Source: an uncultured virus (IMG/VR IMGVR_UViG_3300031733_000001)
Lineage: Duplodnaviria; Heunggongvirae; Uroviricota; Caudoviricetes
Virus record (IMG/VR): IMGVR_UViG_3300031733_000001
Direction: 5' to 3' (one strand)
Length of the DNA stretch: 64,000 nucleotides
The notes beneath the pieces are model-generated. The model saw nothing but the letters and a program-made list of their open reading frames with translations. It did no database searches and was not told the origin of the DNA. The translations under genes and the position numbers were made by a program. Shown here piece after piece: positions 3,361-57,491 of the stretch. Each line of letters begins with the position of its first letter. The stretch's first letter is position 1.

Positions 3361-5397
3361 TTGGCACTCGGTAGCACTGGCAGCCAGACTGCTCTGAGGT
3401 TCAGCCGCACCCGCGGCCGCATGGGTGGGTCTGCCGACTATGGGCTGCAATACCCGAGCCCGTTCTTCGACATCGCCCATACGTACCTCCCTGCCACCGT
3501 GAAGATGATGTTCCGGTGGTGCCGGTACTACTTCCTAGTCAACCCGTTGATCAACGCCGTCGTCTTCAAGATGTCGGAGTATCCGGTCACCGACATCCTC
3601 TTCGACACGGAGCGCCCGGAGCTGAAGAAGATGTGGAGCGGCTTCCTCCTGGAGCAGCTCCGCTACCGTGCGTTCCAGATCGAGGTCGGGCTGGACTACC
3701 ACACCTACGGCAACGCCCTGGTGTCGGTCTTCTACCCGTTCGTGAAGTACTTGGAGTGCAACAACTGCAAGCACCGGGTGCCGGCGCGGGACGCGAAGTA
3801 CAGGTTCCAGAGCTTCAAGTTCCATACGATCTGCCCCAAGTGTGGCCACCACGGGCCGGCCAAGGCAGTTGACCACTACGTGAAGGCCCCGAAGGGGATC
3901 AGGCTCCTCCGTTGGAATCCGGAGGACGTGGACATCAGGTACAACGACCTGACCGGGGAGTACGAGTACTACTACACGATCCCCACGCGCCTGAAGAACG
4001 ACATCATCATCGGGAAGAAGTCTACCGTCGAGACCGTGCCCCAGCTCTTCATCGATGCGTTGAGGCTAAAGAAAGCGGTGGTCTTCTCCCGCGACAACAT
4101 CTACCACTTCAAGCGTCCGACGTTGGCCGGCAAGGACAGGGGGTGGGGTACCCCCATGATCCTGCCGGTGCTGAAGGACACCTTCTACCTTCAGGTCTTG
4201 AGGAAAGCCCAGGAGGCTATCGCACTGGAACACATCGTTCCCTTGCGCATTCTCTTTCCGCAGGCCGGTTCTGCCACGTCCGATCCATACACCTCGGTGA
4301 ACCTCCAAGACTGGAGGGATCAGGTTGCAGGTGAGATACGGCGTTGGCGGTCCGACAACAACTACATCCCGATCATGCCGCTGCCGGTCGGACACCAGAG
4401 CATCGGTGGTGACGGGCGGGCCCTCCTGCTGTCGCAGGAGATTCGGGTGTGGTCCGAACAGATCGTGGCCGGCATGGGTATCCCAGTGGAGCTCGTGTTC
4501 GGTGGTCTGAGCTACTCCGGTAGCAACGTGAGCCTGCGGATGTTGGAGAACACCTTCCTGGGCTATCTTCAGGACCATCTGTCGATGCTGAAGTGGGTCA
4601 TCTCTCGGACCTCTGCGTACCTGGGGTGGTCCCCTGTCAAGGCCAGGTTCAAGCCGTTCAAGATGGCGGACGACCTACAGCGGAAGGCCTACCTCTTCCA
4701 GATGAACCAGGCTGGCAAGCTCTCCGACGAATCTCTCCTGGCGGATGCGGACTACGACTCCTCCAAGGAGGACGAGATCATGAACCGGGAGGCTGCGCGC
4801 CGTGCGGAGAGCACGAAGAAGCAGCAGCTGCTCCAGGCGGAGATGCAGGGCGAGGCCCAGATGGTCCAGATGAAGTGGCAGATGAAGCTCCAGGCACAGC
4901 AGATGAAGGCTGAGGCGGCCGTGCAGAACGAGATCGCCAAGGACCAGGCTGCGTTCCAGGGAGCCCAGCAGTCACAGATGATGCAGGAGCAGATGGCTGC
5001 CCAGTCTGGGCAGCCGCCTCCGCCGCCGAACCCGGAGATGGCACCGTACCCACGCCAGCCCCAACTGATTCAGCCTCCCCCACCGGAGGTGCAGTCTCCG
5101 CTATCGATGCGCTCTGTCAATCAGATCCCCCCACATACCAGAGGGGAAGACCTGGCCGGGCGCACCAGCGTGGACCTGCTCCTGCTCGGCCGACAGATCG
5201 CCGACCGGATCTCCATGCTGGATTCTGTTCAGCGTCCGCGCGCCCTGGCCGAGCTCAGGGCGAGGCAGCCCGCGCTCTATGATGTCGTCTTGGGGCTAAT
5301 GGTGAGCGGAGGGCCCACCAGATCGGCAGCCGCAGCCGCGAGGCCTCTGCCTGAGCAGAAGCCCGCGCGGCGCGGCCCCGAGGCACAATTGATGTGA
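3361..5397 (+). CDS. portal protein with Zn-ribbon insertion and Q/P-rich tail
   Basis: Portal-like segments NPLINAVV..MSEYPV, LDYHTYGNAL, IYHFKR...GWGTPMI; 678 aa; located in the morphogenesis block; CNNC...CPKC insertion. Confidence 0.75.
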   Translation: MALGSTGSQTALRFSRTRGRMGGSADYGLQYPSPFFDIAHTYLPATVKMMFRWCRYYFLVNPLINAVVFKMSEYPVTDILFDTERPELKKMWSGFLLEQLRYRAFQIEVGLDYHTYGNALVSVFYPFVKYLECNNCKHRVPARDAKYRFQSFKFHTICPKCGHHGPAKAVDHYVKAPKGIRLLRWNPEDVDIRYNDLTGEYEYYYTIPTRLKNDIIIGKKSTVETVPQLFIDALRLKKAVVFSRDNIYHFKRPTLAGKDRGWGTPMILPVLKDTFYLQVLRKAQEAIALEHIVPLRILFPQAGSATSDPYTSVNLQDWRDQVAGEIRRWRSDNNYIPIMPLPVGHQSIGGDGRALLLSQEIRVWSEQIVAGMGIPVELVFGGLSYSGSNVSLRMLENTFLGYLQDHLSMLKWVISRTSAYLGWSPVKARFKPFKMADDLQRKAYLFQMNQAGKLSDESLLADADYDSSKEDEIMNREAARRAESTKKQQLLQAEMQGEAQMVQMKWQMKLQAQQMKAEAAVQNEIAKDQAAFQGAQQSQMMQEQMAAQSGQPPPPPNPEMAPYPRQPQLIQPPPPEVQSPLSMRSVNQIPPHTRGEDLAGRTSVDLLLLGRQIADRISMLDSVQRPRALAELRARQPALYDVVLGLMVSGGPTRSAAAAARPLPEQKPARRGPEAQLM

Positions 5398-18243: not shown

Positions 18244-20070
18244 ATGGCGACGATCAATTTGGCAGAAGCGGAGGTCCTCAGATCGGCTAAGGTGATCCCT
18301 CTGCTCTACTCCCTGGATGGGGAGATCAAGGAGCCCTGGTTCGACTACGACGACGAGGGCAATCCACAGGACTTCGGGATCGATTTGGAGCCGCCGGACC
18401 CCACTCCGGACGACCTGCTGGATGTCGAGGCCGACACGTTCATCTACGACGTGTCCCCCTCATCGTTCGCCGAGACTGCGATCCGTGTGCCGGAGGCAGG
18501 CCAGGTCTCAGACTTCAGCTTCGAGGGCCGCGAGTACCTCCGCCGCATCTATGACACCACTGCGGACAAGGTCCTGCTCAAGTGCGGCCGCCAGGTGGAG
18601 AAGTCCACGACCCTCGGCAACAGGCTGCTCTGCTACTCGGCACTGACCAACAACTTCCGCTCCCTGTTCGTCGCCCCCTCGGCCGAGCAGGCCAAGGTCT
18701 TCTCGACAGATCGCATCAAGGACGTGGTGGAAGCGTCGCCGTTGATGAAGGCGTACACCACGACCAAGATCTCACAGGCTGTCTTCTTCAAGAAGTTCAT
18801 CAACTTCTCGCAGATCCGTCTCCGCTACGCCTACCTCACGGCCGACCGTGTCCGTGGTATCCCGGCGGACTTGATCTGCATCGATGAGATCCAGGACATC
18901 CTCATCGACAACATCCCGATCATCGAGCAGTGCGCCTTCCACTCCAAGTACAAGCTGTTCGTCTACTCCGGCACGCCGAAGTCGATGGACAACACGCTCG
19001 AGCACTACTGGTCGGAGTTCTCCACCCAGAATGAGTGGATCGTCCCCTGTGAGAGGCACGGCACGCCCAAGGATCCCAGCTCCTGGCACTGGAACATCTT
19101 GGGCGAGAAGAACATCGGTGAGAAGGGTTTGATCTGCGACAAGTGTGGGGAGCCCATCGACGCTACCCACCCCATGGCTCAGTGGGCGTCGATGAATCCG
19201 ATCACTGAGGACAACAAGGACAAGGTCACCTTCGAGAGCTACCGCATCCCACAGATCATGGTGCAGTGGGTGGACTGGGACGAGATCTTGGCCGCTCAGG
19301 AGCAGTACCCACGTGCCCAGTTCATGAACGAGAAGCTGGGGCTCTCCTATGATTCTGGCGTGCGTCCCATCACCAAGGGTCAGCTCAAGGCATGCTGCAA
19401 GCCAAGCATCAGGTTGGGGGACATCGAGCACTTCAAGCGCCTGGCCTCTGGGCGTCAGATCTTCGCCGGCCTGGACTGGGGTACGGGCGAGAACACCTAC
19501 ACGGTTATCTCCTTCGGGGGCTACTTCGGGACCGGGAACTTCTCCATCTTCTGGATCCACCGTTTTACTGGGCCAGACCTGGAGCCCGAGCGGCAGCTGG
19601 ATCTCATCACCCAGATGATCGCGCAGCTCAACGTCCAGCTCGTAGGGGTGGACTATGGCGGGGGTTTCTATCCCAACGATACTCTGCTCCGGCGGTTCGG
19701 ACCCAGCAAGATCATGAAGTACCAGTACAACCCCAGGCAAAAGAAGAAGGTGTACTGGGAGCCGAATCTCCTCCGCCACATGGTCCACCGCTCCGAGGTG
19801 ATGAGCGATATCTTCAACGCCATGAAGCGGAAGCTGATAGATCTACCGAACTGGGAGGACTTCCGGGAGCCTCACGGCACTGACATCCTCAACATCTTCG
19901 CCGAGTACAACGAGCGGTTGAGGATGATTGAGTACAAGAAGGCGCCAGGCAAGACGGACGACGCCTTCCATTCGATCCTCTACTGCATCTTGGTCTCCAT
20001 GATTATGCGGCCAAGGCCCGACATCCTGACCCCGATGAAGGACACCGGAGTGCCGCCGTCTCACGGGTAA
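18244..20070 (+). CDS. terL: terminase large subunit (lambda GpA-like family)
   Basis: Walker A-like KCGRQVEKST, Walker B LICIDE, coupling motif SGTP, Zn-ribbon CERH..CDKC, nuclease motifs AGLDWG and DDAFHS. Confidence 0.9.
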   Translation: MATINLAEAEVLRSAKVIPLLYSLDGEIKEPWFDYDDEGNPQDFGIDLEPPDPTPDDLLDVEADTFIYDVSPSSFAETAIRVPEAGQVSDFSFEGREYLRRIYDTTADKVLLKCGRQVEKSTTLGNRLLCYSALTNNFRSLFVAPSAEQAKVFSTDRIKDVVEASPLMKAYTTTKISQAVFFKKFINFSQIRLRYAYLTADRVRGIPADLICIDEIQDILIDNIPIIEQCAFHSKYKLFVYSGTPKSMDNTLEHYWSEFSTQNEWIVPCERHGTPKDPSSWHWNILGEKNIGEKGLICDKCGEPIDATHPMAQWASMNPITEDNKDKVTFESYRIPQIMVQWVDWDEILAAQEQYPRAQFMNEKLGLSYDSGVRPITKGQLKACCKPSIRLGDIEHFKRLASGRQIFAGLDWGTGENTYTVISFGGYFGTGNFSIFWIHRFTGPDLEPERQLDLITQMIAQLNVQLVGVDYGGGFYPNDTLLRRFGPSKIMKYQYNPRQKKKVYWEPNLLRHMVHRSEVMSDIFNAMKRKLIDLPNWEDFREPHGTDILNIFAEYNERLRMIEYKKAPGKTDDAFHSILYCILVSMIMRPRPDILTPMKDTGVPPSHG

Positions 20071-22641: not shown

Positions 22642-23132
22642 TGAGCAATCCAGTCGACGAGTTCCTGAAGGAGGCGGGCTGGCTCGACGCCATGGGCAGA
22701 GCCGTCAAGGAGGCTCTGCCTGGAGCCATCGCGTCCGCTGGTATCTCCGCGATGGGTGTCGCCGCCAGCAAGGGCATCGGCATGGTCAAGGAGCGGTTCA
22801 CCAGGGTGCGGGACTACTCCAACATGTTGAAGGCGAATCCCATGCTGCGGGACCACGACGCCAGCTCGGTCCAGATGGTCTACAACTCGCTGAGGAAGAC
22901 CGCACCCTCTCTGGCGGCAGACCCACTCATCGCCGGGTCGTACGTCCGGAACACGCTGGAGATGTCGCCGGAGTCTGGTCCGGCCGTCCCTCTCCAGTCC
23001 GCCAAGCTGCTGGCCGAGACCCAGAGGAACATCACCCAGGGCAAGGCTGGCAGGGGTCCCATCTCCGAGGCATTCCGGCCGACCAAGGTCGATACCTTCC
23101 GACCGGACAGTGAGAATCCCTTCAAGCTATGA
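22641..23132 (+). CDS. small protein with VDEFLKEA leader and hydrophobic segment
   Basis: ATG at 22641 overlaps the upstream TGA; segment GAIASAGISAMGVAA. Confidence 0.6.
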   Translation: MSNPVDEFLKEAGWLDAMGRAVKEALPGAIASAGISAMGVAASKGIGMVKERFTRVRDYSNMLKANPMLRDHDASSVQMVYNSLRKTAPSLAADPLIAGSYVRNTLEMSPESGPAVPLQSAKLLAETQRNITQGKAGRGPISEAFRPTKVDTFRPDSENPFKL

Positions 23133-25123
23133 TCGTCAAGGTATGCCAGTTCAAAGCCCGACGTGAGCAGGGCGAACGCCTGGTGGAGATCTTCCAGCCG
23201 GGTGAGATGGAGAAGGCCGCCGAGTTCTTCTCCATGGGCAAGACAGCAGCGCCCATGCTCCCGCAGGTCCAGGCATACCTCGACAAGCTGAAGCCCGATT
23301 CCCAAAGGATCTACGTCCTCGTCAACGCCCTGGGAGCTGGTGAGTTCTGGGGCTCGAACATCAACGGGGACTACTTCCCGGAAGCTTCTTTGATCCACAA
23401 GGGTCCGGTCTACGGATACGAGACCTTCTACGGAGCCTTCCCCTACAAGCACCACGTCAACAAGGACCCAAGCAAGGCCTTCGGCAAGGTCGAGCTGGCT
23501 GCCTGGAACGACGCCATGAAGCGCGTCGAGCTGGTGGTCATGATCGACCGCAAGCGGGCAGAGATGTTCGGGGCCACCGACGTGTGCGACAAGCTGGACC
23601 ACGGCCTGTTTCCCGACGTGAGCATGGGCTGCAAGGTCCCCTATGACCTCTGCTCCAAGTGCCTGGACTGGAAGAAGTACCGACAGGCCCAGGCCACTTT
23701 CGACCCGAGCCGGCATCGGTCGGTAGGCGTCGCAGTCCTGGAGTTCCACAAGAAGAACCCCATCCGTGGGCTCTCCGTCACCCGGAACGACTACTGCGAG
23801 CATCTCAAGGGTATGCTCAACAAGATCCTGGCGGACGGGACGAAGATCTACGCGATCAACGACTACCCCAGGTTCTTCGACATCTCTTTTGTTTTCATCG
23901 GTGCTGACAAGACCGCAAAGGTCATGGCAAAGTTGGCTATGGCGCATACTGGGGGTCGAAAATATGTCACGATCCCCTCCTGGTTGGTGGCGGAAGAGAT
24001 GGGCTACGAGCAGCCGAGCACAGAGAAGTCGTTCGAGAAGGCAGCAGCAGTGCCCAGCTTGTGGAGCACCAGCCACCCCGGCCGGAAGAAAGTCCGCGAG
24101 GTTTGGAGCGAGCTGCTCACCGGCAAGAGGATCGCCAGCCTCCACAGCGGGTCTCAGGGGAAGGAGAAGCGGTCGGCCATCGACATCGTGCGCGATCGGC
24201 TCCGGGAGAAAAAGGCTTCCCAGCGCAAGGGCGCGGAGATTATAAAGGATGTCAAGCCGTCTCAGTTTGGCAGCAAGGCCGTGCCCCTGGAAGACAACAG
24301 ACCAGATTTGCCGGATGAAGTCCTCGATCAACTGGGCAAGGGTGACCTCAGCGAGGCACTCTCCACGCCCACGACGATGGGGATGATCCTCAAGCCCCGC
24401 GAGTTCCAGAGGATCACCATCATCCGGCTCGGCAAGAAACCACTGGCAGACCAGCTCGATCGAGATGGGGAGGTGATCCCTCCCACGGACGAGTCTGACA
24501 CCTCGATCCCCCTGGGATCGGGGCACTTCAGTTCCATGCTGAAGCGTCTCCTCTTGCCGATGATGGAAGACCGTAGCATGCTGGAGCCCATCGCAAGACG
24601 TAGGGTGGTCCGCATCACGATCTGTGGGGCGCCAAAGGCTGATGACGGGGAGGGGAAAGAAGCTGAAGAAACCCCCTTCCTACAGAAGATCTCGGCAGCT
24701 TATAATGGCTACCTAGATCGGATCGGAGATTGTCTAGTAGATGCAGGAGCCATTGTGGATGCGGATCCTGATCTGTGGGAAACAGTCCACAGATCAGGAC
24801 TTGCGGACGGCTTTGAAAAGACCGCTGCTGGGGTCAACCCAGCTGTGGTCCTAGGCGCAGTAGGCGGAGCCTTCGCGCTGAGTCGTTGGGCGGCGCACCA
24901 ACAGAGACGAGCGATGATGGGAGCACGAGGACCAACAGGGGCGTTGATAAACCTGGCGGCCGAGAATCCCAAAACGCTCATGGTGATGGCTGGGATGGGC
25001 GCTCTTCATCAACAAGGATCTCAGATTCCCAGGCGGCTCGTCCGCGGTGTCGTGGACGCAGTCAAAGGTGGTGGGGCATCCCTGAAAGAAGGACTGAAAC
25101 AAGGGGTTGGCCAACTGCTTTAG
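23129..25123 (+). CDS. prohead (capsid maturation) protease
   Basis: NINGDYF, candidate catalytic His in YKHHVNKD, candidate catalytic Ser in DVSMGC followed by CxxC, and FFDISFV..GAD; lies upstream of the scaffold and capsid genes as expected for HK97/herpes-fold maturation proteases. Confidence 0.75.
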   Translation: MIVKVCQFKARREQGERLVEIFQPGEMEKAAEFFSMGKTAAPMLPQVQAYLDKLKPDSQRIYVLVNALGAGEFWGSNINGDYFPEASLIHKGPVYGYETFYGAFPYKHHVNKDPSKAFGKVELAAWNDAMKRVELVVMIDRKRAEMFGATDVCDKLDHGLFPDVSMGCKVPYDLCSKCLDWKKYRQAQATFDPSRHRSVGVAVLEFHKKNPIRGLSVTRNDYCEHLKGMLNKILADGTKIYAINDYPRFFDISFVFIGADKTAKVMAKLAMAHTGGRKYVTIPSWLVAEEMGYEQPSTEKSFEKAAAVPSLWSTSHPGRKKVREVWSELLTGKRIASLHSGSQGKEKRSAIDIVRDRLREKKASQRKGAEIIKDVKPSQFGSKAVPLEDNRPDLPDEVLDQLGKGDLSEALSTPTTMGMILKPREFQRITIIRLGKKPLADQLDRDGEVIPPTDESDTSIPLGSGHFSSMLKRLLLPMMEDRSMLEPIARRRVVRITICGAPKADDGEGKEAEETPFLQKISAAYNGYLDRIGDCLVDAGAIVDADPDLWETVHRSGLADGFEKTAAGVNPAVVLGAVGGAFALSRWAAHQQRRAMMGARGPTGALINLAAENPKTLMVMAGMGALHQQGSQIPRRLVRGVVDAVKGGGASLKEGLKQGVGQLL

Positions 25124-28454: not shown

Positions 28455-29576
28455 ATGAGCGTACCAGCAAGAGTTCTGAACGATCTCTTCACCCACAAGG
28501 TCGGAACGGCCGAGGGGAAGGAGAAGATCGCGGAGTACGCCGGCACCTACATCCGGGACCGTCTGCGTGAGGTGGCCTACAGCCGTAAGGTCATCCCGCC
28601 CCAGATGGTCACCCGGGCGGACTGCCAGCGTTCCGTCAACCACGACACCCTGGTGAAGATCGTGGACGTCGAGCCCAAGAGCCGCGCCATGGCCATCACC
28701 TTCCGCGGTCAGCCGACCGCCCGGTTCATCCGCGCCCCGCGGGCCGAGGTCCCCTTCTACACGATCTCCTCGGAGAAGTTCGAGAAGACCGAGCAGGAGC
28801 TCCTCGCCTACGAGATGCCGGTGACCAAGATCATCGAGGACAACTCGGTGAAGGACATCCAGGAGATCGAGGACCGCGAGTTCACGATCCACATCGAGGC
28901 CGCCGTGCAGGCGCTCCAGGCCGAGGCGAACGGTGGCGCTGTCACCACGCTGAACGCCAGCGCCATCACCGCCGGCACCGTGGTCGAGTTCTCGGTCCGC
29001 AAGGGCGCCCTGGCCCGCGCCGCCGCGGCGGACGACGCTACCGTCCTGCCGATCCAGCGGCCCGACCTGGTCAACCTCTTCAAGATGCTGGACGGGAATC
29101 GCCTGCGGGCGGAGCTCATCCTCATCACCGAGGTCGACTGGGACGACATCCTGCAGTGGACGGTGGAGGACTTCGGCGACAAGCTGCAGTCCGAGACCAC
29201 CACCGACGGGTACAAGTACAACCTGCTCCTGGGCAGGCAGTACGTCCGCACCATCAAGACCGACATCCTGCGGCCCGGCAACGTGTACTGCTTCACCAAG
29301 CCGGACTTCTTCGGTCGCTTCTACATCCTGAACAACACGAAGTTCTACATCGACAAGATCGCGAACCTGATCACGTGGCAGTCCTGGGAGGACATCGCCA
29401 TGTCGGTCATCAACATCGCGTCGGTGCGGAAGCTCGAGCTGTACTCGGGGGACGCGACCGCGAACGACGCCGACGGCATCCTCTCCTCGGTCATCCCCGT
29501 GGACGAGGAGGACCTCGGCGCCGAGAACAACCGCGTGGACTCCGGTCTGGTGTACCCGGGGGTCGAGACCTACTAG
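28455..29576 (+). CDS. major capsid protein
   Basis: 373 aa, extreme C/G-ending codon bias, position after protease/scaffold/decoration, followed by a strong terminator; IRDRLRE..YSRKVIPP N-terminal pattern. Confidence 0.75.
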   Translation: MSVPARVLNDLFTHKVGTAEGKEKIAEYAGTYIRDRLREVAYSRKVIPPQMVTRADCQRSVNHDTLVKIVDVEPKSRAMAITFRGQPTARFIRAPRAEVPFYTISSEKFEKTEQELLAYEMPVTKIIEDNSVKDIQEIEDREFTIHIEAAVQALQAEANGGAVTTLNASAITAGTVVEFSVRKGALARAAAADDATVLPIQRPDLVNLFKMLDGNRLRAELILITEVDWDDILQWTVEDFGDKLQSETTTDGYKYNLLLGRQYVRTIKTDILRPGNVYCFTKPDFFGRFYILNNTKFYIDKIANLITWQSWEDIAMSVINIASVRKLELYSGDATANDADGILSSVIPVDEEDLGAENNRVDSGLVYPGVETY

Positions 29577-36612: not shown

Positions 36613-39600
36613 ATGGCTACTGAACTGCTTCAACCTGGCGTTTCCGTAATCCAGGAGTTCCGGACGGTGAGCCCGACCATCGTGACTCCCACGCTGGTCC
36701 CCTGCGCCGTTGCGCCGGCCTTCCAGGTGCTGGAGGCTCTGGAACAGGACGCCACAGGCAACAACGTGCTGAACACGGATGCGCTGGCCTCGGTGCCCGC
36801 CATCCTGATGGCGGCCAACCCCGGTGACTACGCCGGGCTCGACGGTCTGGTTCTGAAGGTGAGCGTCAACAACGGCGCGGAGCAGGAGATCACCTTCAGC
36901 GACCCGACGGCGTTGAACCTGAGTGCGTCTCAGGTGAAGGACCAGATCAACGCGGCGAGCCCTTCGGGCTTCGGGGCCTACGTGGTGACGAGCGGCTCGA
37001 GCAGCTACGTCCAGCTCCGGTCCACGGGCAAGGGCGACGGCCAGTTCCTGAAGGTGCTGGGCGGAGACGCCAACTCGGTCCTCGGGTTCAACGACAACTA
37101 CGAGTCCGAGGGCGTGTCCAGCTACAGCCAGGACAAGGTCTTCGTGGAGCAGGACAACTTCCCCGACCCGCGCGGGATCATCGACGAGCTGGACGTGGAC
37201 GAGTCCAGCATCCGGTGCTTCCTGAGCTCGAGCGGGGCGAACCTGAAAGAGTTCCTGCGGGACAGCACGTTCCTGCGGAAGCACAAGGGCGCGACCTACA
37301 CCGGCGGGACCGTCACCTACGGCTCGTTCAACACCACGAAGTTCGCCTTCAAGTACCAGAAGGGTGGTGCGACCCACGAGTTCACCTTCGCTACCGAGCC
37401 GGGCGACATCGCCACGCTGGTCAGCGACATGAACACGCTGATCGCCGCGCTGTCCGGTCTCACCTTCACTGTGAACGGTTCGGTGATCGACGCCGAGTCG
37501 GACTACGGCTACTTCGAGGTGGTGACGCCTTCGGCCAGCTCGGCCCACAGCAACATGGGCTGGACGGATGGGGCCAAGGCCTACACGATGGAGCCGGTGG
37601 ACGACGGCGACGGCGACACCAAGACGCCGTTCGTGGTGGTGGACCAGGACAACTTCAACGCCGCGGCCGACGAGGCGGTGAAGACGGGCACGGTGGACAT
37701 CACCACCGAGCAGCAGATCCACAACCTCACCTTCGAGGTGGCCGTCGACGGCGCTCACATGCAGGAGGTCACCTTCGATGGTGGCCCGATCGTGGGGCCC
37801 AACATCTTCGTGGTCGGCAACACCCTGACCGGCTCGGTGTTCGGCTTCAGCGTCAACGGCGTGGACAAGACGGTGACCTTCGCCGGTGGTGACCCGATCT
37901 CCATCGCGTCGGCCATCTCCCAGATCAACGCCGCGGCCGGGACCACGGTCTGCTACGAGTCGAACGCGTCCGGCGTGGCGACCACGGGCGGCGGGTATCT
38001 CGCCTTCCAGGTGGGTGGGGCGACCCCCATCGCCGGCGGCGAGATCTACCTGGACTACTCCGTGGCCACGGGCACGGCCTGGGCGGACCTGGGCTTCACG
38101 GGCACCTCGGATGTCTACCAGACCCTGTCGCTCGCCGAGATCGTGTCGCAGATCAACGACACCATGGGTGCGGGTGTGGCGGACAGCACGACCGTGGCCA
38201 ACCGGGTGACGCTCAACTCCAGCACCAAGGGTGCGGAGTCGAAGATCGAGATCGGCAACGGGACGGCCAACACGCTCCTCGGCTTCACGGCTGGGGACGT
38301 GGAGAACGGCACTCCGTTCGCTCCGGCGGTCGGGGATGCGGTCTACGGCGAGGGGACCCTCATCGGCTACGTCGCCGTGGTGCGGCCGGGTGGGTACAAC
38401 AACCGCCTGAAGCTGGACCGGGAGATCTCCACCAGCGCCGGGTACGTCTCGATGTACATCCAGGCCGTGGGGATCCCCAGCACGCTGCCGGCCACCAGGC
38501 CCACCCCGGACCTGGTCGTGGACGCGGCGGGGGCCGTGAACCTGAAGCACGACTTCCTGCGGGACACCGAGGGCAACCCCATCGCCGCCTCGGCCTCCCT
38601 GATCATCATGTACACCGCCCTCCGGCTGGACGTGACGCCGGCGGCGGACGATCCCGGGCTGCTGAACCTCGATGACACGGACGACCTCGAGGATGCCCTG
38701 GCGCCCATCAACACCGACAACCCGCTGGGCCTGATGCTGTACTTCATGCTCATCAACGCCCCGGGCGTGGTGGTCACCGGCATCGGCGTGGACGCCGTGA
38801 GCGCGCTCAACCCGGACGGGACTCCGACGGCCTACTCCAAGGCCCTGTCCTTCCTGGAGAGCGAGGAGGTCTACGCGCTGGCGCCGGCCTCGCAGGACCC
38901 GGTGGTCCATCAGCTGTTCATGACCCACGTGGATGCGCAGTCCGACCCGGACGCCAAGGGCGAGCGGATCGTCTTCATCAACCCGGAGATGCCGGGGGAG
39001 GCGGTGCCAGACCTGGTGACCAGCGGCACGGACGGCGACTCGACGGCGGTCAGCAACGAGTTCGACACCAAGCTGGCGACCCTGGCGGCGGACCTGCTGG
39101 CGGCGGGTGTGGACCCCACGGGGACACTCGACGCGGAAGACGGGGTGTACCTGGACATCGCCTCGGACGCCTACCGGTACAACATCTCGGCCATCAGCGG
39201 CACCAAGGTGACCATCCGGGTGGCCTTCGCTCCGGGGGAGAACGATGACGACTTCTTCGCCGAGTCGAACCTCCCCACCAACCTGATCTCCGAGTCCTTC
39301 ACCATCTACGTGCGGGGCGAGGCCGCGGTCGACTCCAACGGCGACCCGGACTACACCGAGATCGCCCAGGCGTACCAGGACCTGGGGCAGCTCTACCAGA
39401 ACCGGCGTGTGATCATGGTGGCCCCGGAGCTGGTCGGCGCGACCATCGAGAGCACCGAGCAGCAGATCAAGGGCTACTACCTCTGCGCGGCCATCGCCGG
39501 CATGGTGGGTCAGTTGGCGCCCCAGCAGGGCTTCACCAACTACCCCATCACCGGCTTCACTCGGGTCAAGGGCTCGAACGATGTGTTCAACCAGACCCAG

Positions 39601-39990
39601 ATGAACGTCGGGGCGGCCGGCGGTACCTACTGGGTCATCCAGGAGGTGGCCGGTGGTCCTCTGACCTGCCGGCACCAGCTCACCACGGATCTCACGAGCA
39701 TCGAGACCCGCGAGCTGTCGATCACCAAGGTGGTGGACTTCACCGCGAAGTTCATGAGGGCCGGCCTTCGGAACTTCATCGGCAAGTTCAACATCACCCA
39801 GCCGTTCCTCGACACCCTCAGCACGGTCGTGCAGGGCCAGCTGTCCTTCCTGACCGAGTCGGGTGTCATCATCGGCGGTGACCTGAACAACATCGTGCAG
39901 GACACCTCGGCCCCGGACACGGTCCTCATCGACGTGACCCTGGACGTGCCGTACCCCTGCAACTACATCCGGCTCACCCTCGTCATCTGA
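36613..39990 (+). CDS. contractile tail sheath protein (large, with insertion domains)
   Basis: N-terminal QPGVSVIQE; C-terminal RHQLTT, ELSITKVVDF and PYPCNYIRLTL; 1125 aa; followed by the tube gene. Confidence 0.85.
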   Translation: MATELLQPGVSVIQEFRTVSPTIVTPTLVPCAVAPAFQVLEALEQDATGNNVLNTDALASVPAILMAANPGDYAGLDGLVLKVSVNNGAEQEITFSDPTALNLSASQVKDQINAASPSGFGAYVVTSGSSSYVQLRSTGKGDGQFLKVLGGDANSVLGFNDNYESEGVSSYSQDKVFVEQDNFPDPRGIIDELDVDESSIRCFLSSSGANLKEFLRDSTFLRKHKGATYTGGTVTYGSFNTTKFAFKYQKGGATHEFTFATEPGDIATLVSDMNTLIAALSGLTFTVNGSVIDAESDYGYFEVVTPSASSAHSNMGWTDGAKAYTMEPVDDGDGDTKTPFVVVDQDNFNAAADEAVKTGTVDITTEQQIHNLTFEVAVDGAHMQEVTFDGGPIVGPNIFVVGNTLTGSVFGFSVNGVDKTVTFAGGDPISIASAISQINAAAGTTVCYESNASGVATTGGGYLAFQVGGATPIAGGEIYLDYSVATGTAWADLGFTGTSDVYQTLSLAEIVSQINDTMGAGVADSTTVANRVTLNSSTKGAESKIEIGNGTANTLLGFTAGDVENGTPFAPAVGDAVYGEGTLIGYVAVVRPGGYNNRLKLDREISTSAGYVSMYIQAVGIPSTLPATRPTPDLVVDAAGAVNLKHDFLRDTEGNPIAASASLIIMYTALRLDVTPAADDPGLLNLDDTDDLEDALAPINTDNPLGLMLYFMLINAPGVVVTGIGVDAVSALNPDGTPTAYSKALSFLESEEVYALAPASQDPVVHQLFMTHVDAQSDPDAKGERIVFINPEMPGEAVPDLVTSGTDGDSTAVSNEFDTKLATLAADLLAAGVDPTGTLDAEDGVYLDIASDAYRYNISAISGTKVTIRVAFAPGENDDDFFAESNLPTNLISESFTIYVRGEAAVDSNGDPDYTEIAQAYQDLGQLYQNRRVIMVAPELVGATIESTEQQIKGYYLCAAIAGMVGQLAPQQGFTNYPITGFTRVKGSNDVFNQTQMNVGAAGGTYWVIQEVAGGPLTCRHQLTTDLTSIETRELSITKVVDFTAKFMRAGLRNFIGKFNITQPFLDTLSTVVQGQLSFLTESGVIIGGDLNNIVQDTSAPDTVLIDVTLDVPYPCNYIRLTLVI

Positions 39991-42495: not shown

Positions 42496-42700
42496 CGGGG
42501 TCGATCAGCAGTCCCATACTGCGCTTCTCATAGTACGCCGTGATGAGGGCACGTACAATATCAGACGGGTATGGAACGCCCATCCTCTTGGCCTCACGCT
42601 CGAGGAAGGCGAGCATATCAGGAGGGACGTAGATGCTTAGTCTCCGCTTGATATCCTCCTGAGCTTCTTCCGGTGCCGGTCTATGAGTCCTGCGGGGCAT
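42488..42700 (-). CDS. ribbon-helix-helix DNA-binding protein
   Basis: RRLSIYVPPDMLAFLEREAKRMG...SDIVRALI (CopG/Arc pattern). Confidence 0.65.
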   Translation of the reverse strand: MPRRTHRPAPEEAQEDIKRRLSIYVPPDMLAFLEREAKRMGVPYPSDIVRALITAYYEKRSMGLLIDPDD

Positions 42701-45278
42701 CGAGAGTGGAGACCCTACGGCCAGTGGGCACACCGTCACAGTGCAGCTCGAAGCAGTCGAGGCAGATCTCCCACTGACCCTCGTCCAGATCCAGCTCAGC
42801 CATCATGTGGTTGGGTACGTCCTGCAGGCGGACATGAATCCCGTCCTTGCAGGAGTGCAGAGGGTGGTTCTCCGGAGCGAAGGGATCGAACGGACGGGGG
42901 CACATGCAGCCCGTCTTGTCGCACTTCTTGCAATACCCGGCCTTGTAGATCTTGGCCTTGTTGGCCAGTTTCCGCGCGTCCTCCTGAGCCTTGTGGATCC
43001 GCTCCTGGCGCTCCTTCTCCTTCTGGGGCGCCAGGCGCTTCTGCTCCTCGATGAACCGCTTGGTGTCCGGGGACCAGGCCCGGGCAGACTTCTCGGAGAA
43101 CGTGGGCTCGTCGGTCCCCAAGATCTCCCTGCAGGCCTGCTCGAGTAGCTTCTGCTCACCCAGGAGCAGGACGTCAGACGACCGCTTGACCCGGTCCTCC
43201 ACCAGCTCCACCACCCTCGTGGCCGCTACCTTGAACTTGGCAGCGGTCTTCTGCGCGAAGTTGATGATGAACTGCTTCGCCCGCTCCAGGGTCAGCTCCA
43301 CCGACTCCACCGACACCTGGAAGTAGTCCTTGGCGTGCGATCCACACGCCATCAGCTCGATCTCCCGGTTCTTCCGCTCTGTACAGGGGTGACCCACGGA
43401 CAGGACGACGGAGGTGAGGGGGCCGTGCTTGAGGGGCTTGTTGATGTCCTGGGGGGTCCGATCGGACCCCCGCTTCGTGCCGAAGCTCATGGCCATGGCC
43501 ACCTGGTGGATAGCCTGCACGGCGTGCTTGAACGTGTGGCTAGTGACCTTCACCCGCTCCGTGCTCTCCCGCAGGCAGGTCAACACCTGCTGAGCACCAG
43601 CCAGATCGCCACTGCCCAGGGTGAGCTCGGCCGCCACGGCGTGGCAGAACTCCTCGATGAGCGCCTCGGTCGCGTAGGTGTCGTCCACGTGCTCCCAGGG
43701 CATCTGGGAGGTCTTGATGGTCTGGCCCTTGCGGTCCTTGGCCCGCAGCTGCAGGACGTCCTCGCCGTTCTTCTTGTAGTTGCGCCGCTCCACGCACACC
43801 CTGAACAGCTCACGCTCGGGCTTGATGCCCAAGAACTCCTGCACGATCTTGGAGTCCTTCAGCACCCTGTCCAGCATGATGTCGTCCACGGCGTGGATGG
43901 GGTCGATGGCGCCGATGGTCCGGACCATCCGCTTGGCCACCACGCCCGCGTTCTTGGTCCCCAGCGCCTCCAGTAGAGACCGTGTCATCGTGAAGAAGTT
44001 GCAGCCGACGGCTCTGGCTGCAGGCTCGATGAAGTCGTGGAAGATGTGCCCACCGGAGATCTTGGTCTTGTGGAACCGCTTCCCCATCAGCGGCTGCCAG
44101 CGCCACCCGTAGAAGACGCCGAACTGGAGGCGGCTCTGCTGCTCACCGTTCACTATGCTCACCACCACCTTCCACTGCTTGGGCCACTCCTCCTTCACCT
44201 CGTTGATGGTCCTGGTGGCATCACAGTGGGGGTAGTTGCTGCAGCCGTAGAACTCGTGCCCCTCCATGAGTCCCCGACCGGCCTCATGGAGCACCATGGG
44301 GGCGTCGCAGCGAGGGCAGTAGACCTTCTCGGGAAGGTCCCCCTCGTCGTCATCGCTGGCGTAGAGGCCTGCCAGTTGATCAATGTTCATTTCGGCCTCC
44401 TTCTGGTGCAGCAGCGCCTCCACACGCTGCTGCGCCCGGTATAGTGTGTACTGCTCCCGAGACAGCTCCTTCACCTCGATCAGCTTGGGGGCGTTCTCGG
44501 ACGTGGCGAGCCAGTTCAGCCTCTCCGAGATCCCCTCCAATACCCACCTGATCTTCTCGATCGGCGAGTGCTCATCCAGCTTGGGGATCTTCATGGGTCC
44601 TGGCTCGTCCCCCGGGTCCAGGGGTTGGCAGAGGTACTCGTTGGCGAACCTCTGCTCGTCGACCTGGGAGACGTGGTGGGGATCTCCCTGGTAGGTCTTG
44701 ATGTACTGGTCGGTCATTGCCTTGATGCGCTGGGCAGTCTTGTTCATGACCTGCATCGGCTCCCTCTCCAGATCTGCCTTGGTGGTGGGCGGGCTCTGCC
44801 CTGGCGGCAAGAACTTCATGTCCTCGAGGATGAATACGTCCCCGTTGGCGTCCGGCTCACCGCTCCTCTTGACGACACCCATCACCAGGACGGTCCTACC
44901 GTCATCACCGAAGTCGATGCCTACGATCCTGTCGCCCTCCTCTGGCACTTGATACACGGCGTCGTCGTGGGTGTGCATCATCGGCATCGGGATGAGGGTG
45001 CGGCCCTGCGGTGACTCGAGCTTGAATCCCTGCTCCGCCATGCGCTGGGCCACGATCCTCAGCTCGAGCTGGGCGAAGTCGGTGTTGATGATCGGGGTGT
45101 CCTTCGGCTCGTAGCCAGCCTCGCAGAGCGGACACTTGGTCTCGGGCACCTTGCAGCCCATCGAGACGTCCTTGAGGCTGCCGTCGAAGATGTGACTTGG
45201 GAACTGGGGCGGGTCCACCCAGATGTCGTTGAAGCTCAGCTTTCCAGGGACCCACCTCTTTGTCTTACTCTCGGCCAT
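42681..45278 (-). CDS. 865-aa mosaic protein (enzyme-motif array, topoisomerase-type Zn finger, unknown C-terminus)
   Basis: AAGGAGG SD; see findings; CPRCDAPMVL...FYGCSNYPHC matches the TopA C4 Zn finger. Confidence 0.7.
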   Translation of the reverse strand: MAESKTKRWVPGKLSFNDIWVDPPQFPSHIFDGSLKDVSMGCKVPETKCPLCEAGYEPKDTPIINTDFAQLELRIVAQRMAEQGFKLESPQGRTLIPMPMMHTHDDAVYQVPEEGDRIVGIDFGDDGRTVLVMGVVKRSGEPDANGDVFILEDMKFLPPGQSPPTTKADLEREPMQVMNKTAQRIKAMTDQYIKTYQGDPHHVSQVDEQRFANEYLCQPLDPGDEPGPMKIPKLDEHSPIEKIRWVLEGISERLNWLATSENAPKLIEVKELSREQYTLYRAQQRVEALLHQKEAEMNIDQLAGLYASDDDEGDLPEKVYCPRCDAPMVLHEAGRGLMEGHEFYGCSNYPHCDATRTINEVKEEWPKQWKVVVSIVNGEQQSRLQFGVFYGWRWQPLMGKRFHKTKISGGHIFHDFIEPAARAVGCNFFTMTRSLLEALGTKNAGVVAKRMVRTIGAIDPIHAVDDIMLDRVLKDSKIVQEFLGIKPERELFRVCVERRNYKKNGEDVLQLRAKDRKGQTIKTSQMPWEHVDDTYATEALIEEFCHAVAAELTLGSGDLAGAQQVLTCLRESTERVKVTSHTFKHAVQAIHQVAMAMSFGTKRGSDRTPQDINKPLKHGPLTSVVLSVGHPCTERKNREIELMACGSHAKDYFQVSVESVELTLERAKQFIINFAQKTAAKFKVAATRVVELVEDRVKRSSDVLLLGEQKLLEQACREILGTDEPTFSEKSARAWSPDTKRFIEEQKRLAPQKEKERQERIHKAQEDARKLANKAKIYKAGYCKKCDKTGCMCPRPFDPFAPENHPLHSCKDGIHVRLQDVPNHMMAELDLDEGQWEICLDCFELHCDGVPTGRRVSTLDAPQDS

Positions 45279-45573
45279 GTGTGAGGTCCTCCTTCATCAT
45301 CTTAGTAGCTGCCTCCAGAGTCATCAACTCCCCTCTGTAGCGTGCTCGGTAGCGTCTGTCGTCCTTGATGATCTGGGCCCTTCGGCCGTGCCCGGTCTTG
45401 ATGTAGGTGACCCGTAGCTCGGGCATCGGGCGGGACCGTACCCCGGGAGGGAACTTCGACCCCAGCCAACCACGCATCGTTGGGCCTGGGTTTGACACCA
45501 GCCAGTCCACGATCTCGTCTGTGATCGGATCGACGGTCACAGCCTCGATCCTCCATGGTGATGTACTAGTCAT
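45265..45573 (-). CDS. hypothetical protein
   Basis: GGAGG SD before ATG 45573; coupled to its neighbours. Confidence 0.5.
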   Translation of the reverse strand: MTSTSPWRIEAVTVDPITDEIVDWLVSNPGPTMRGWLGSKFPPGVRSRPMPELRVTYIKTGHGRRAQIIKDDRRYRARYRGELMTLEAATKMMKEDLTHGRE

Positions 45574-46142
45574 GCATCCTCCGGTCCTCTGGCCGTTCGC
45601 GGTGGCCCGCACGGCCTGGGGTAGTCGTTCATGAAGATGCCAACGGGCTCCCCACCCTCCTCCTCATGGATGACCAGCGGCATGAACTCCCTGGGGTACT
45701 GCTCATGCTTGGCCGGCCTATAGAGTCGGTAGTGGGGGTCATCGATGAACGTCTCCACTGCGTCGAAGTTGTGGACACCGTACTGGATCCGCATGGTCTT
45801 GCGGTAGGTGTAGATGATCTGATCGTGGTCCAGATCATCCTGGTTCGGATCTGCTTCTTCCACCTTGGCGAGCTTGCCGGCGGGGTCGAGCAGCACGTTC
45901 CTCCACCCCTCCTTCTGCAGGCGTTCGCGGGCGGTCTGGAACTCCTGCTGCTTCTGGTTGTCGAGGAGCTTGTTGAACCTGGAGCACTCGAGATCTACCA
46001 GGTGGATGGGCCACTCCATGAGCCAGCCGTGGTTGGTGACCACGACATGATCGTTGTAGAGCATTGCGTAGGGGTTACCCTTGGTAGTCGGCTCCAGTAT
46101 CTTGCGCAAGGCCAAGATCGACTTGTTGTCCAGTGGGTTCAT
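45570..46142 (-). CDS. hypothetical protein
   Basis: GGAGG SD before ATG 46142. Confidence 0.5.
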   Translation of the reverse strand: MNPLDNKSILALRKILEPTTKGNPYAMLYNDHVVVTNHGWLMEWPIHLVDLECSRFNKLLDNQKQQEFQTARERLQKEGWRNVLLDPAGKLAKVEEADPNQDDLDHDQIIYTYRKTMRIQYGVHNFDAVETFIDDPHYRLYRPAKHEQYPREFMPLVIHEEEGGEPVGIFMNDYPRPCGPPRTARGPEDA

Positions 46143-46336
46143 GTGTGCCTCCAGTCCTTCGGAAGGAAGCCGCCCTTCAACAGCCACTCGTCTAGGTTGG
46201 TGAAGCACTCCGCCAGCTCTTCGCCGGCGGTGTCGGTCGTGGTGGTTTCGTGATGCTGCCGTTTTGCATCAGCCCGCTCGATCAGGTGTCTAGCCAGGCG
46301 ACGGCACATCCTCAGAGTCTCATCAGGGTCCATCAA
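46139..46336 (-). CDS. hypothetical protein
   Basis: AGGAGG SD; LDEWLLKGGFLP..W motif typical of small phage proteins. Confidence 0.55.
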   Translation of the reverse strand: MMDPDETLRMCRRLARHLIERADAKRQHHETTTTDTAGEELAECFTNLDEWLLKGGFLPKDWRHT

Positions 46337-46559
46337 CCTCCTTCTCTTTCTGTTCCTCTTCCCAGCTGACCCACTGGGTCATGATCTCCACGTCGTGCAC
46401 GTCCCACTCTACGTCCGTGAACTGCGCCGGCGGACTCGTGAGAAGTGCCTTGAAAAGGGTTGCGATCTGTCGCCTGCAGGGTAGCTGCCCCCCAGGCTTG
46501 GTCACAACCCGTAGTTGGGCCGTGACTGTGTAATTACCACTTTGTACTTCTTCTGACAT
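46323..46559 (-). CDS. hypothetical protein
   Basis: AGGAGG SD before ATG 46559; preceded by GGCATAAG. Confidence 0.5.
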   Translation of the reverse strand: MSEEVQSGNYTVTAQLRVVTKPGGQLPCRRQIATLFKALLTSPPAQFTDVEWDVHDVEIMTQWVSWEEEQKEKEVDGP

Positions 46560-46658
46560 AAAGCCTCCTACAGGCGTGTTTTCTTGCGCCTTAGTTACTT
46601 TACCCTTATGCCGTATTTTTGGCTTGACTTGAGTGCTGTATTCTATACCATGATCAGC

Positions 46659-47072
46659 ATGCCAAAGACAGTGATCATCCTGAGAGGGCTCCCCGGGAGC
46701 GGGAAGAGCAGCATCTGTGATCTGCTCGATCCCCACCACCTGGTCTCGATGGACCTGTTCTGGACCAAGGACGGGAGCGCGTACAACTTCGACTACGGCA
46801 AGCTGAAGGAGGCCATCGACTGGACACATCAGCAGTTCATCGAGGCCCTCGAGGCCGACTATCCCGAGGCCAGCCCCCTGGTCGTGGTCGACAACGTCAG
46901 CTACATGAAGATGCACTACGAGTTCTTCTTCGAGGAGGCGCGCAAGCGTGGCTGTAGGGTCCATGTGCTACATGTGGAGCGGCCCCTCGAGGAGTGCATC
47001 GTCAGCACCAAGCACAGCGTGCCCGCGGACAAGATCCGTCAGATGCACAGCAAGTGGGAGCCCCTGATCTAG
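46659..47072 (+). CDS. P-loop kinase (AAA_33 / polynucleotide-kinase-like)
   Basis: IILRGLPGSGKS Walker A, VVVDN and HSVPADKI..M; upstream TTGACT-16-TACCAT suggests a leaderless start at 46659. Confidence 0.75.
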   Translation: MPKTVIILRGLPGSGKSSICDLLDPHHLVSMDLFWTKDGSAYNFDYGKLKEAIDWTHQQFIEALEADYPEASPLVVVDNVSYMKMHYEFFFEEARKRGCRVHVLHVERPLEECIVSTKHSVPADKIRQMHSKWEPLI

Positions 47073-55032: not shown

Positions 55033-55329
55033 TTATACCTCGATCCTCCCTGTCCCTTCACACCTGGAGCAGCAACGGTCGCCCACGAAGCCACCCTTGC
55101 AGCTCTTGCACTTCACGTACTTCCTGGGTGGCTCCACGCGCACCTCGCGCTTCTCCCACGGCATGACGCACAACAGCTTGATGAACTCGACTTGATCTGG
55201 AGCCATGGACTTGGCGATCTTCTCAGCCTCCTCAGCCGTCTTGAAGGGGCCTGACCACCGGTCGGCGGCCCGGCCTTCGTTGAACCACCACCCGACCGGC
55301 ATACCCTGGATGATGTGGGGCTCACCCAT
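55033..55329 (-). CDS. protein with DnaJ-type CxxCxGxG Zn finger
   Basis: CKSCKGG...CSRCEGTG; ATG 55329. Confidence 0.55.
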   Translation of the reverse strand: MGEPHIIQGMPVGWWFNEGRAADRWSGPFKTAEEAEKIAKSMAPDQVEFIKLLCVMPWEKREVRVEPPRKYVKCKSCKGGFVGDRCCSRCEGTGRIEV

Positions 55330-57142: not shown

Positions 57143-57491
57143 ATAGCTTCTCCTTCTCGTCCAGGAACTGGTTTCTCGCTTCGTCCGTTCGTAGGAGGAT
57201 CCTGAGACCTTCTGTACAGGCGCCGTCCGGTTGTGCGCAGATCTCACAACCAGCCAGGTGGGAACGCCACTTCATGCCCCACCGATTCCACCTGCGGAAC
57301 TTGCGCAGATACGGGATCTTCCTCCCTCGCTTGAGGGCCTCTTTCAAGGTGGTGTCCCGGATGTTGCCCAGGATGAACACCTCTGGGTGGTCTCTCGCCG
57401 CATCCTTGCACGCTGGACAGGGGATGATGTCGCCAGTCGGCAAGACCTCCAGCTTGGTCACGCCGGCGTTGCAGATGTGTTCGTCCCCCAT
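57114..57491 (-). CDS. stand-alone SPASM/twitch-like Fe-S domain protein
   Basis: CNAG....EVLPTGDIIPCPAC...LGNIRDTTLKE; ATG overlaps the radical SAM stop. Confidence 0.65.
   Translation of the reverse strand: MGDEHICNAGVTKLEVLPTGDIIPCPACKDAARDHPEVFILGNIRDTTLKEALKRGRKIPYLRKFRRWNRWGMKWRSHLAGCEICAQPDGACTEGLRILLRTDEARNQFLDEKEKLYGTHHQQEG

Follow-up and report, generated by a model that had tools for sequence, protein, structure and literature searches.

What might a tailed phage gain from a protein whose first two hundred residues read like a string of peptides from the active sites of core phage enzymes? The question is raised by P0001, an open reading frame (ORF) of 865 residues on the minus strand (42681..45278) of a 64,000-nucleotide stretch of DNA from an uncultured caudoviricete (IMG/VR record IMGVR_UViG_3300031733_000001); this whole stretch is called the window below. 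The original prediction, made from the letters alone, had read its N-terminal part as a chain of decoy epitopes for host immune sensors, and the ORF and every peptide quoted there are indeed present in the DNA at the coordinates given. The N-terminal arm (44589..45278, residues 1-230; all features of P0001 lie on the minus strand) bears the motif cassettes and has no confident fold. We find that these cassettes are real, above chance, more conserved than the folded core of the protein and conserved as protein, not as DNA, and that they are individually dispensable and shuffled between relatives. A selected, modular display of peptide blocks is thus what the data directly show. Our favoured reading, to which we give a probability of about one in three, is that the arm may be a multivalent display of invariant motifs competing for the host factors that recognise them.

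The comparisons that follow rest on a small family. No close relative of P0001, as DNA or as protein, was found among 50,697 phage records. A HMMER search of 1.84 billion representatives returned 327 proteins at E ≤ 0.001, and most of the 150 listed match only the zinc ribbon of the core. A word-indexed protein search retrieved P0001 itself and five topoisomerases, these via the zinc ribbon, while a second such search gave 108 matches, among which P0013 alone is a true relative and the rest again match via the ribbon. We used 13 true relatives, several of them fragmentary (P0008-P0014, P0016, P0017, P0021, P0024, P0035 and P0060). Six of the 14 sequences, namely P0001 and five relatives, cover the N-terminal arm in alignment A2, and P0021 too has an arm.

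Three cassettes of P0001 resemble segments of family A DNA polymerases. The A cassette (45036..45089, residues 64-81) is like motif A, with its aspartate strand and the next helix; the G cassette (44982..45029, residues 84-99, GF.LE.P.GR..PMP) is weakly like the PolA element GYVxTxxGRR, as seen in E. coli; and the C cassette (44940..44981, residues 100-113, H.HD...VP) is like motif C. When a profile of the six aligned arms was searched against 177,635 distinct PDB sequences, 40 of the 45 matches at E ≤ 10 were family A polymerases (best E 0.02). The best 35 matches all belong to this family (Pol theta, Klenow, Bst Pol I), and the polymerase alignments all lie at motif A and its helix, with a second, sub-threshold stretch at motif C (-1.6 bits) that is colinear with motif A. 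Pfam DNA_pol_A is the second commonest family over the 14 members, matching three of them below its cut-off (E 0.0015-0.019), at motif A in P0009 and P0017 and at the motif B/O-helix region in P0021. Our own profile of nine real family A polymerases placed residues 56-84 of P0001 on motif A (7.3 bits) and residues 98-114 on motif C (-2.3 bits). None of 1000 shuffles reached the whole-sequence PolA score of P0001, P0013, P0009, P0017, P0021 or P0060, while that of P0011 was reached once and that of P0010 11 times; P0001 scored 8.9 bits, and none of the 377 other ORFs in the window exceeded 2.9. The proposed likeness of DFAQLELRIVA to motif A is therefore backed by three independent profiles. 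The motif C assignment stands as to place, being colinear with motif A in two profiles, but stays below threshold in both. The third peptide, GFKLE..GR, lies colinearly between A and C and is shared by P0001 and P0013 only, but no profile reports a match to it and the likeness is weak.

Over the family, motif A is matched in P0001, P0009, P0013 and P0017, motif B in P0021 and P0060, and a TGR..NIP block in P0009, P0010 and P0011. The residues of known importance are retained, with the motif A aspartate present in all six arms that have motif A and the aspartate of H.HD in five of six. None of these proteins is a whole polymerase, however: P0001 gives no match to PF00476 at E ≤ 10, the relatives score 14.3-18.0 bits where a whole domain requires 34.3, and the order A-B-C within one palm/fingers domain is not found, since in P0001 A and C stand about 25 residues apart with no B. 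A six-frame search for a family A polymerase in G001, the nearest virus record, which is 29% complete, gave no match, with controls detected in 10 of 14 genomes.

The match to the phage's own protease-like protein is of a different kind. P0007, a 664-residue protease-like/scaffold protein encoded on the plus strand (23129..25123), carries an S site (23603-23662), an N site (23336-23386) and a His site (23441-23467), and the S cassette of P0001 (45123..45182, residues 33-52) copies its Ser motif and its C-x6-C-x2-C pattern. Residues 33-52 of P0001 and 159-178 of P0007 are identical at 12 of 20 positions, with DVSMGCKVP matching at 9 of 9 and the cysteine spacing equal (pairwise BLASTP E 7e-4). 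When the arm was compared with all other six-frame ORFs of at least 80 residues in the window (n = 377), P0007 came top (E 0.016, against 2.5 for the next), and in Smith-Waterman alignments none of 500 shuffles reached the score of any of the four S cassettes of the family, P0001 included. Two cysteine positions, the third and the one that follows SMG, vary within the P0007 family, and at both the S cassette matches this phage's own protein. The serine codons differ as the original prediction had noted (TCG in P0001, AGC in P0007), and over the nine codons the two genes agree at 22 of 27 nucleotides, where independent codon choice predicts 22.1 ± 1.7. Since the DNA identity is just what codon choice would give, what has been conserved in the S block is the protein sequence, through selection on the peptide, and the match does not stem from recent copying of the DNA. 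On the same ground, together with the protein identity ending after nine residues, we rejected a recent DNA copy, gene conversion and a recoded repair template as explanations of the match.

The NGDxF motif of the N cassette is invariant in all six aligned arms and always aligns to residues 75-113 of P0007. Its score in P0001 was reached by 344 of 500 shuffles and in four other members by 10-110, but by none in P0021, where NGDxF extends colinearly into the His motif of the P0007-type protease (the H cassette). The suggested kinship of DANGDVF with the protease NINGDYF is thus significant in P0021 alone, though the motif is conserved across the aligned arms; the peptide of P0001 taken singly is not significant. 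P0001 is itself no prohead serine protease of the HK97/T4 type, in which His and Ser motifs share one fold of about 200 residues: the Ser motif is represented by just a 20-residue copy and the NGD block by seven residues, and these stand in the reverse order to that in P0007. The P0007 family is large and has no family name (1718 proteins at E ≤ 0.001 among 4145 candidates); in the ESM Atlas, P0007 falls near Peptidase_S77/S78 clusters at 0.89-0.90, which is a lead only, and a PDB profile search with 16 of its relatives gave three matches at E ≤ 10, none of them a protease.

Between these cassettes and the core lies the R-N block (44832..44933, residues 116-149), in which a GxDxG beta-hairpin like that of the nuclease of the terminase large subunit (TerL) leads into EP.xNGDxF, like the N motif of the protease. 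It is present in all six aligned arms and is the best-conserved stretch of the arm, only the short K/H block reaching a higher single value. The best local alignment of the R cassettes always falls on this phage's TerL, at one or other of its two G[LV]D[WY]G motifs (19450..19701, plus strand; TerL residues 403-422 and 465-486). In six of seven members 0-14 of 500 shuffles reached the score (14 for P0001), and in P0010 61 did, bearing out the proposed link between the GxDxG hairpin and the TerL nuclease. The likeness is confined to this hairpin of about 20 residues, and Pfam shows no terminase family. The second terminase resemblance, that of RFANEYLC, did not hold: the block is not conserved, and relatives have a portal-like block in its place. 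Blocks of P0011, P0017 and P0010 match residues 244-340 (4090..4380, plus strand) of a portal-like ORF at 3361-5397, with 0, 2 and 3 of 300 shuffles, respectively, reaching the score; P0009 aligns to the same region without significance (114/300), with a weak Pfam Phage_portal match (E 0.029). The K/H block (44664..44753, residues 176-205, ..RIKA.TDQY...DPHHV) is kept in five relatives and has been assigned no parent. The E block, LDVETDG, which we take to be exonuclease-I-like, found support in no search.

Comparison of the relatives with P0001 reveals where constraint acts. Identity is 60-70% in the S cassette, 44-74% in the R-N block and 40-60% in the A cassette; it is 48-67% in the zinc ribbon, and falls to 21-33% in domain X of the folded core and to about 15% in the linker at residues 150-175. 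At the same time whole cassettes come and go. S is absent from P0017 and P0021, C from P0010, and G is limited to P0001 and P0013. P0017 has the order PP..C.SDV, A, C, E, R, N, whereas in P0021 R, E, C, N, H, PPPP and A run directly into the zinc ribbon, and motif B with a QSGAA block follows domain X, so that its polymerase motifs read C, A, zinc ribbon plus domain X, B. PP..C.SDV recurs in the second low-confidence region of P0009, P0010, P0011 and P0012, following a TGRF piece in the first three, and in P0017 and P0021 a PP-rich piece stands immediately ahead of motif A, which is the polymerase order. The expectation that homologs would keep the motifs while gaining, losing or reordering cassettes and letting linkers diverge was borne out, as was the expectation that PolA, S and R cassette scores would exceed shuffled controls.

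No single domain accounts for the arm in Pfam or in PDB profile searches, and a Pfam scan of the first 220 residues by themselves came back empty at E ≤ 10. In an AlphaFold2 model from the 14-sequence alignment, residues 1-182 have a predicted local distance difference test (pLDDT) score below 50, with block means of 26-42, and the only local elements are a motif A helix (residues 68-81) and the strands of the GxDxG hairpin (residues 120-123 and 131-134). The same run gave about 90 for residues 320-600 and almost throughout less than 50 for residues 601-709. So marked a difference between arm and core in the same run speaks against a single stable domain in the arm, whose first 200 or so residues probably lack a stable fold, as the original prediction had anticipated in expecting a mostly unfolded region: the arm shows no confident fold on the same shallow alignment on which the core models well.

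The core begins with a long helical hairpin (44364..44564, residues 239-305) bearing a conserved LYR.RQ.VE motif, followed by a C4 zinc ribbon of the Top1/GRF type (44199..44324, residues 319-360). The latter is a true Zn_ribbon_Top1 (PF01396) domain, scoring 37.1 bits against a cut-off of 32 at residues 319-359; it is the one Pfam match in P0001, is present in six of 14 family members, and resembles the GRF fingers of NEIL3 (Foldseek probability 0.94). Domain X (43479..44186, residues 365-600) consists of two tandem beta-beta-beta-alpha modules and models well alone (mean pLDDT 85.7). Foldseek found no PDB match at E ≤ 0.001 for the full model or for domain X; its best rows (E 8e-3 to 7e-2, template modelling scores 0.05-0.18) are ASKHA/Hsp70-type ATPases, Ppx/GppA and a region of HIV reverse transcriptase, the best match of domain X (E 8e-3) being ASKHA/RNase-H-like in topology only. 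The wide VIA-align lists are dominated by the helical hairpin (Z up to 8.7 and 7.6), and the ESM Atlas returned only zinc-ribbon clusters for residues 310-600. With no convincing structural match we assign no fold, and the model suggests a new alpha/beta domain without a clear known counterpart. Then follow a variable region (43104..43478, residues 601-725), which in relatives holds further PolA-like cassettes (TGRF..KNIPY..PP..C.SDV, or motif B as NF..NYGAG) and is degenerate in P0001, and a long helix (residues 727-777) with a Cys-rich C-terminal domain (residues 781-865; together 42684..43103), the part most widely shared among the family. Coiled coils are among the confidently modelled parts of the P0001 core.

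A further regularity emerged from the parents of the cassettes. Ten of the 120 best P0007 relatives bear intein domains (Hint/LAGLIDADG, precomputed Pfam), and eight intein-bearing relatives define four insertion points, KHH/.NKD, DVSMG/CKVP, TRNDY/CEHL and GAGEFWG/SNINGDYF (the slash marks the point). Three of these four are the sites of the H, S and N cassettes, that is, of all three protease-derived cassettes. P0294 and P0335, among the family relatives P0294-P0346, are cases of two inteins in one P0007-family protein. Likewise, two annotated Staphylococcus phages have a polymerase gene split by HNH-bearing sequences within TGRLASSNP/NLQNI and after ..NFGLAYGR, and these split points correspond to the T/NIP and B cassettes. 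In the text available of one account, highly conserved motifs are where inteins reside, and the proteins that harbour them include terminases, portal proteins and DNA polymerase I (PMC4760082). The family proteins are not inteins: no Hint, Intein_splicing or homing-endonuclease domain was found in the 14 members (Pfam, E ≤ 10). P0009 has an extra stretch at residues 53-75, between the S and A cassettes, whose CLAGG looks like an intein start, with no Hint detected. Selfish elements exploit these points because the host gene is unable to change there; the coincidence with the cassettes means either that the cassettes are the most immutable segments, which fits mimicry, or that they originated from mobile elements.

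The latter origin deserves to be weighed. An intein or homing intron might have inserted with short flanks into tolerant linkers and then been lost, leaving extein junctions behind, in which case the arm would have no function of its own or would be a landing pad only. The coincidence at three of four P0007-family points, that of the TGR..NIP and motif B cassettes with the HNH-bearing interruptions, the record of terminase, portal and DNA polymerase I as intein hosts in the part available of the cited source (PMC4760082), and the confinement of cassettes, in variable number and order, to two low-confidence regions would all follow. Neutral footprints are nevertheless unlikely, because the cassettes are two to three times better conserved than the folded core, as scars would not be, and no Hint or endonuclease remnant survives in any of the 14 members. 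Nor does the DNA identity to the parent exceed what codon usage predicts, which indicates no recent copying or gene conversion and makes DNA-level roles unlikely as well; a number of PolA and portal pieces are colinear but separated by deletions, like trimmed larger fragments and not separate scars; and inteins and cassettes may merely both have chosen the most invariant motifs. We regard as similarly improbable a cryptic small fold, in which the strand and helix of motif A would pack with the hairpins of motif C and GxDxG into a palm-like or RNase-H-like sheet, without fingers and possibly permuted, that would bind metal, nucleotide or DNA ends beside the zinc ribbon, the family then being related to the family A polymerases in degenerate or very derived form. 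In its favour, the A, G and C cassettes run in the same order as in PolA, as though the fingers had been deleted; motif A retains its Asp, Glu and Arg and motif C its His-Asp; motif B retains its Lys, Phe, Tyr and Gly in P0021 and P0060 (Pfam profile positions 206-259); and AlphaFold2 forms the motif A helix and the GxDxG hairpin locally. Birnavirus RNA polymerases have a permuted palm, which the order C-A-B of P0021 recalls. A catalytic mini-palm is hard to reconcile, however, with the dispensability of whole cassettes, motif C included: P0010 lacks it, and elsewhere its second carboxylate is D, C, V or H. The arm models at pLDDT 26-42 against about 90 for the core, cassette order varies between members, the Pfam scores of 14-18 bits, each spanning 33-57 residues, lie far under 34.3, and the protease, TerL and portal pieces would go unexplained. 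A small fold with no catalytic role is still conceivable.

The same evidence for selected, modular peptide blocks would also suit mimicry directed at phage proteins instead of immunity, with the cassettes binding partners or assembly intermediates of polymerase, protease, terminase and portal, whether the phage's own, for timing or for DNA recruitment via the zinc ribbon, or proteins of competitors infecting the same cell, as a form of dominant-negative interference. That the S cassette matches this phage's own protein at 9 of 9 residues, and not just a family consensus, speaks for it. We nevertheless consider it quite unlikely, as the copied segments are buried catalytic-core strands in their parent folds and not known interfaces, and literature searches turned up no precedent. 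That the motifs are chance resemblances or compositional artefacts picked by eye is scarcely credible. It would account for RFANEYLC, which is not conserved, for GFKLE..GR, which no profile reports, and for the NGDVF of P0001 with its many equal shuffles; on the other side stand the share of polymerases in the PDB-wide search, the shuffles, the low background of real ORFs and the conservation in relatives, and for motif A and the S and R cassettes chance is refuted by the shuffle and background controls.

This leaves the favoured reading, mimicry of recognised phage segments. Those segments of core phage proteins that are least free to mutate would be displayed by the arm as linear copies: family A polymerase motifs, three motifs from the phage's own head-protease-like protein, the hairpin of the TerL nuclease and, among the relatives, pieces of portal. 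The arm is tethered to a core with a zinc ribbon of the DNA-binding type. By molecular mimicry the cassettes would occupy the pockets of factors that recognise these invariant segments, and host pattern-recognition sensors of the Avs/STAND type are the leading candidate partners, which the cassettes might bind while failing to present the complete fold on which activation depends. Disorder of the arm, any binding by it and the identity of the partner are inferences. In its sharper form, a polyvalent trigger mimic whose non-activating copies would block a panel of host receptors that the phage cannot mutate away from, the idea is slightly more tentative. In the portions available of two reports (PMC13581612, PMC13601566), Avs19 senses family A polymerases, Avs4 and Avs11 portal, and Avs1-3 terminase; EcAvs2 accommodates in its TPR pocket 11 residues from the nuclease core of a partly unfolded terminase, a stretch that is normally buried, and SeAvs3 reads immutable active-site residues (both PMC13601566). 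Sensing of polymerase and portal, together with recognition of such segments by SeAvs3 and EcAvs2, makes a competitive, non-activating mimic conceivable.

Several points weigh against it. In the available portions of the same two reports (PMC13581612, PMC13601566), Avs sensors mainly read folded cores, and the head protease is absent from the list of Avs targets given there; a copy of a trigger could, moreover, activate a sensor instead of blocking it. Some members of the cassette set are frail in P0001 itself, where the N cassette is not significant alone and the portal block is not significant either (207/300 shuffles). The label 'protease' for P0007 rests on gene position, the invariant His and Ser and weak Atlas leads, with nothing to back it from Pfam, PHROGs, NCBIfam or the PDB profile search. 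The arm alignment is just 5-6 sequences deep, so that low pLDDT is no proof of disorder, and the composition of the arm is borderline, with 50% disorder-promoting residues. The coincidence with intein sites fits a mobile-element origin equally well. Finally, the family is very rare (the 13 relatives used, against 1.84 billion representatives), which is odd for a generally useful counter-defence. The decoy interpretation has fared unevenly: every computational expectation tested, on shuffles, homologs, fold and the lack of a single explanatory domain, came out in its favour, while the published evidence, as far as the available parts go, points both ways, and the placing of P0001 in an early gene block, on which the original prediction had leaned, finds no support.

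P0001 is in fact near the distal end of the leftward block, beside the convergence with structural genes. Plus-strand genes reach about 41.9 kb and minus-strand genes span from the window end down to 41,998, P0001 being the third-last of them; its start ATG and the end of ORF 45265-45612, the next one upstream, overlap. The window comes from a large tailed phage, whose nearest virus record, G001, lies inside the window, holds an identical P0001 copy and is 29% complete at 52.5 kb (CheckV). The nearest cultured relatives of the TerL in the window are those of Salmonella phage Arash (31% identity, 181 kb) and of Vibrio phages of about 187 kb; these sizes and the completeness estimate suggest a genome near 180 kb. 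On the plus strand are annotated TerL (18244-20070), the major head protein (28455-29576) and a fused RNA polymerase beta/beta' (6790-12954), a single 2054-residue ORF that joins a beta-like part (Rpb2 domains) to a beta'-like part (Rpb1 domains) as a fused multisubunit-type enzyme. An 1125-residue ORF at 36613-39990, also plus, is sheath-like, its last 200 residues matching a tail-sheath PHROG; a 1339-residue ORF is open on the opposite strand there, as is typical of high G+C. Annotated minus-strand genes include ThyX and a radical-SAM-like gene; in the 641-residue ORF at 55322-57247 (-) the ThyX domain covers only residues 413-571, and the N-terminal 410 residues match no family. Two genes upstream of P0001, a 65-residue ORF (46139-46336, -) matches PHROG 865 (HNH endonuclease, E 5e-18). 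Within the minus-strand block, a plus-strand ORF at 46584-47072 is like P-loop kinases (AAA_18/KTI12), has a weak PADLOC match (PDLC01900) and overlaps the minus-strand ORF 46323-46964; likely only one of this pair is real. PADLOC-DB 2.0 yielded no family at E ≤ 0.01 for P0001 or for five of six tested neighbours, and P0001 matches nothing in PHROGs or NCBIfam.

If the cassettes act as mimics, they would embody a new principle of counter-defence, in which spare copies answer the recognition of immutable features, and would show at once which linear stretches of polymerase, terminase, portal and protease are read by sensors or other factors. Were the polyvalent form true, the gain, loss and shuffling of cassettes would record the sensors met by each phage lineage. 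If they are instead intein or intron footprints kept by selection, mobile elements would have seeded new protein sequence. Whichever holds, catalytic motifs here survive outside their folds, which makes the family a natural experiment, and the intein link charts independently where the parent proteins are least able to change.

Set beside known systems, P0001 matches none in full. With Avs/STAND recognition, as described in the parts available of the reports (PMC13581612, PMC13601566), it shares the cassette parents, since polymerase, portal and terminase are all sensed, and the exploitation of immutable features; it differs in being a phage protein and not a sensor, and the sensors mostly read folded cores. 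The anti-Avs proteins in the accessible part of the EVADES preprint (10.1101/2025.06.06.658234), the ligase ORF55 and the DprA-like ORF83, act by other means. In the portions of the literature consulted, these ligase and DprA-like proteins are the known anti-Avs factors, and neither a protein made up of peptides from catalytic motifs nor an anti-Avs protein that mimics a trigger is described there. With family A DNA polymerases (PF00476) the family has in common motif A and its helix, motif B and the TGR..NIP blocks with their key residues; it departs from them in consisting of 15-60-residue fragments that score 14-18 bits against the 34.3 cut-off, in lacking the thumb and, in P0001, the fingers, and in an order scrambled among members, with other domains interposed and the region not modelled as a fold. 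Among Top1/GRF-type zinc-ribbon proteins P0001 counts by virtue of one true domain, through which alone its many database matches run, the remainder being unrelated to topoisomerases. Intein and homing-intron sites agree with the cassettes at three of four P0007-family points and two PolA points, yet no Hint, LAGLIDADG or HNH domain occurs in the 14 members, and the peptides stand alone and are conserved as protein. Viruses do practise mimicry by short linear motifs, and mimic-type anti-defence proteins exist, such as the DNA mimic Ocr. P0001 would be set apart from these by copying invariant catalytic motifs of the virus itself, several on one chain, of which, to our knowledge, no case has been described and the literature searches brought up none; what it would share with them is a disordered or simple scaffold that shows a copied, recognised feature and competes for its binder.

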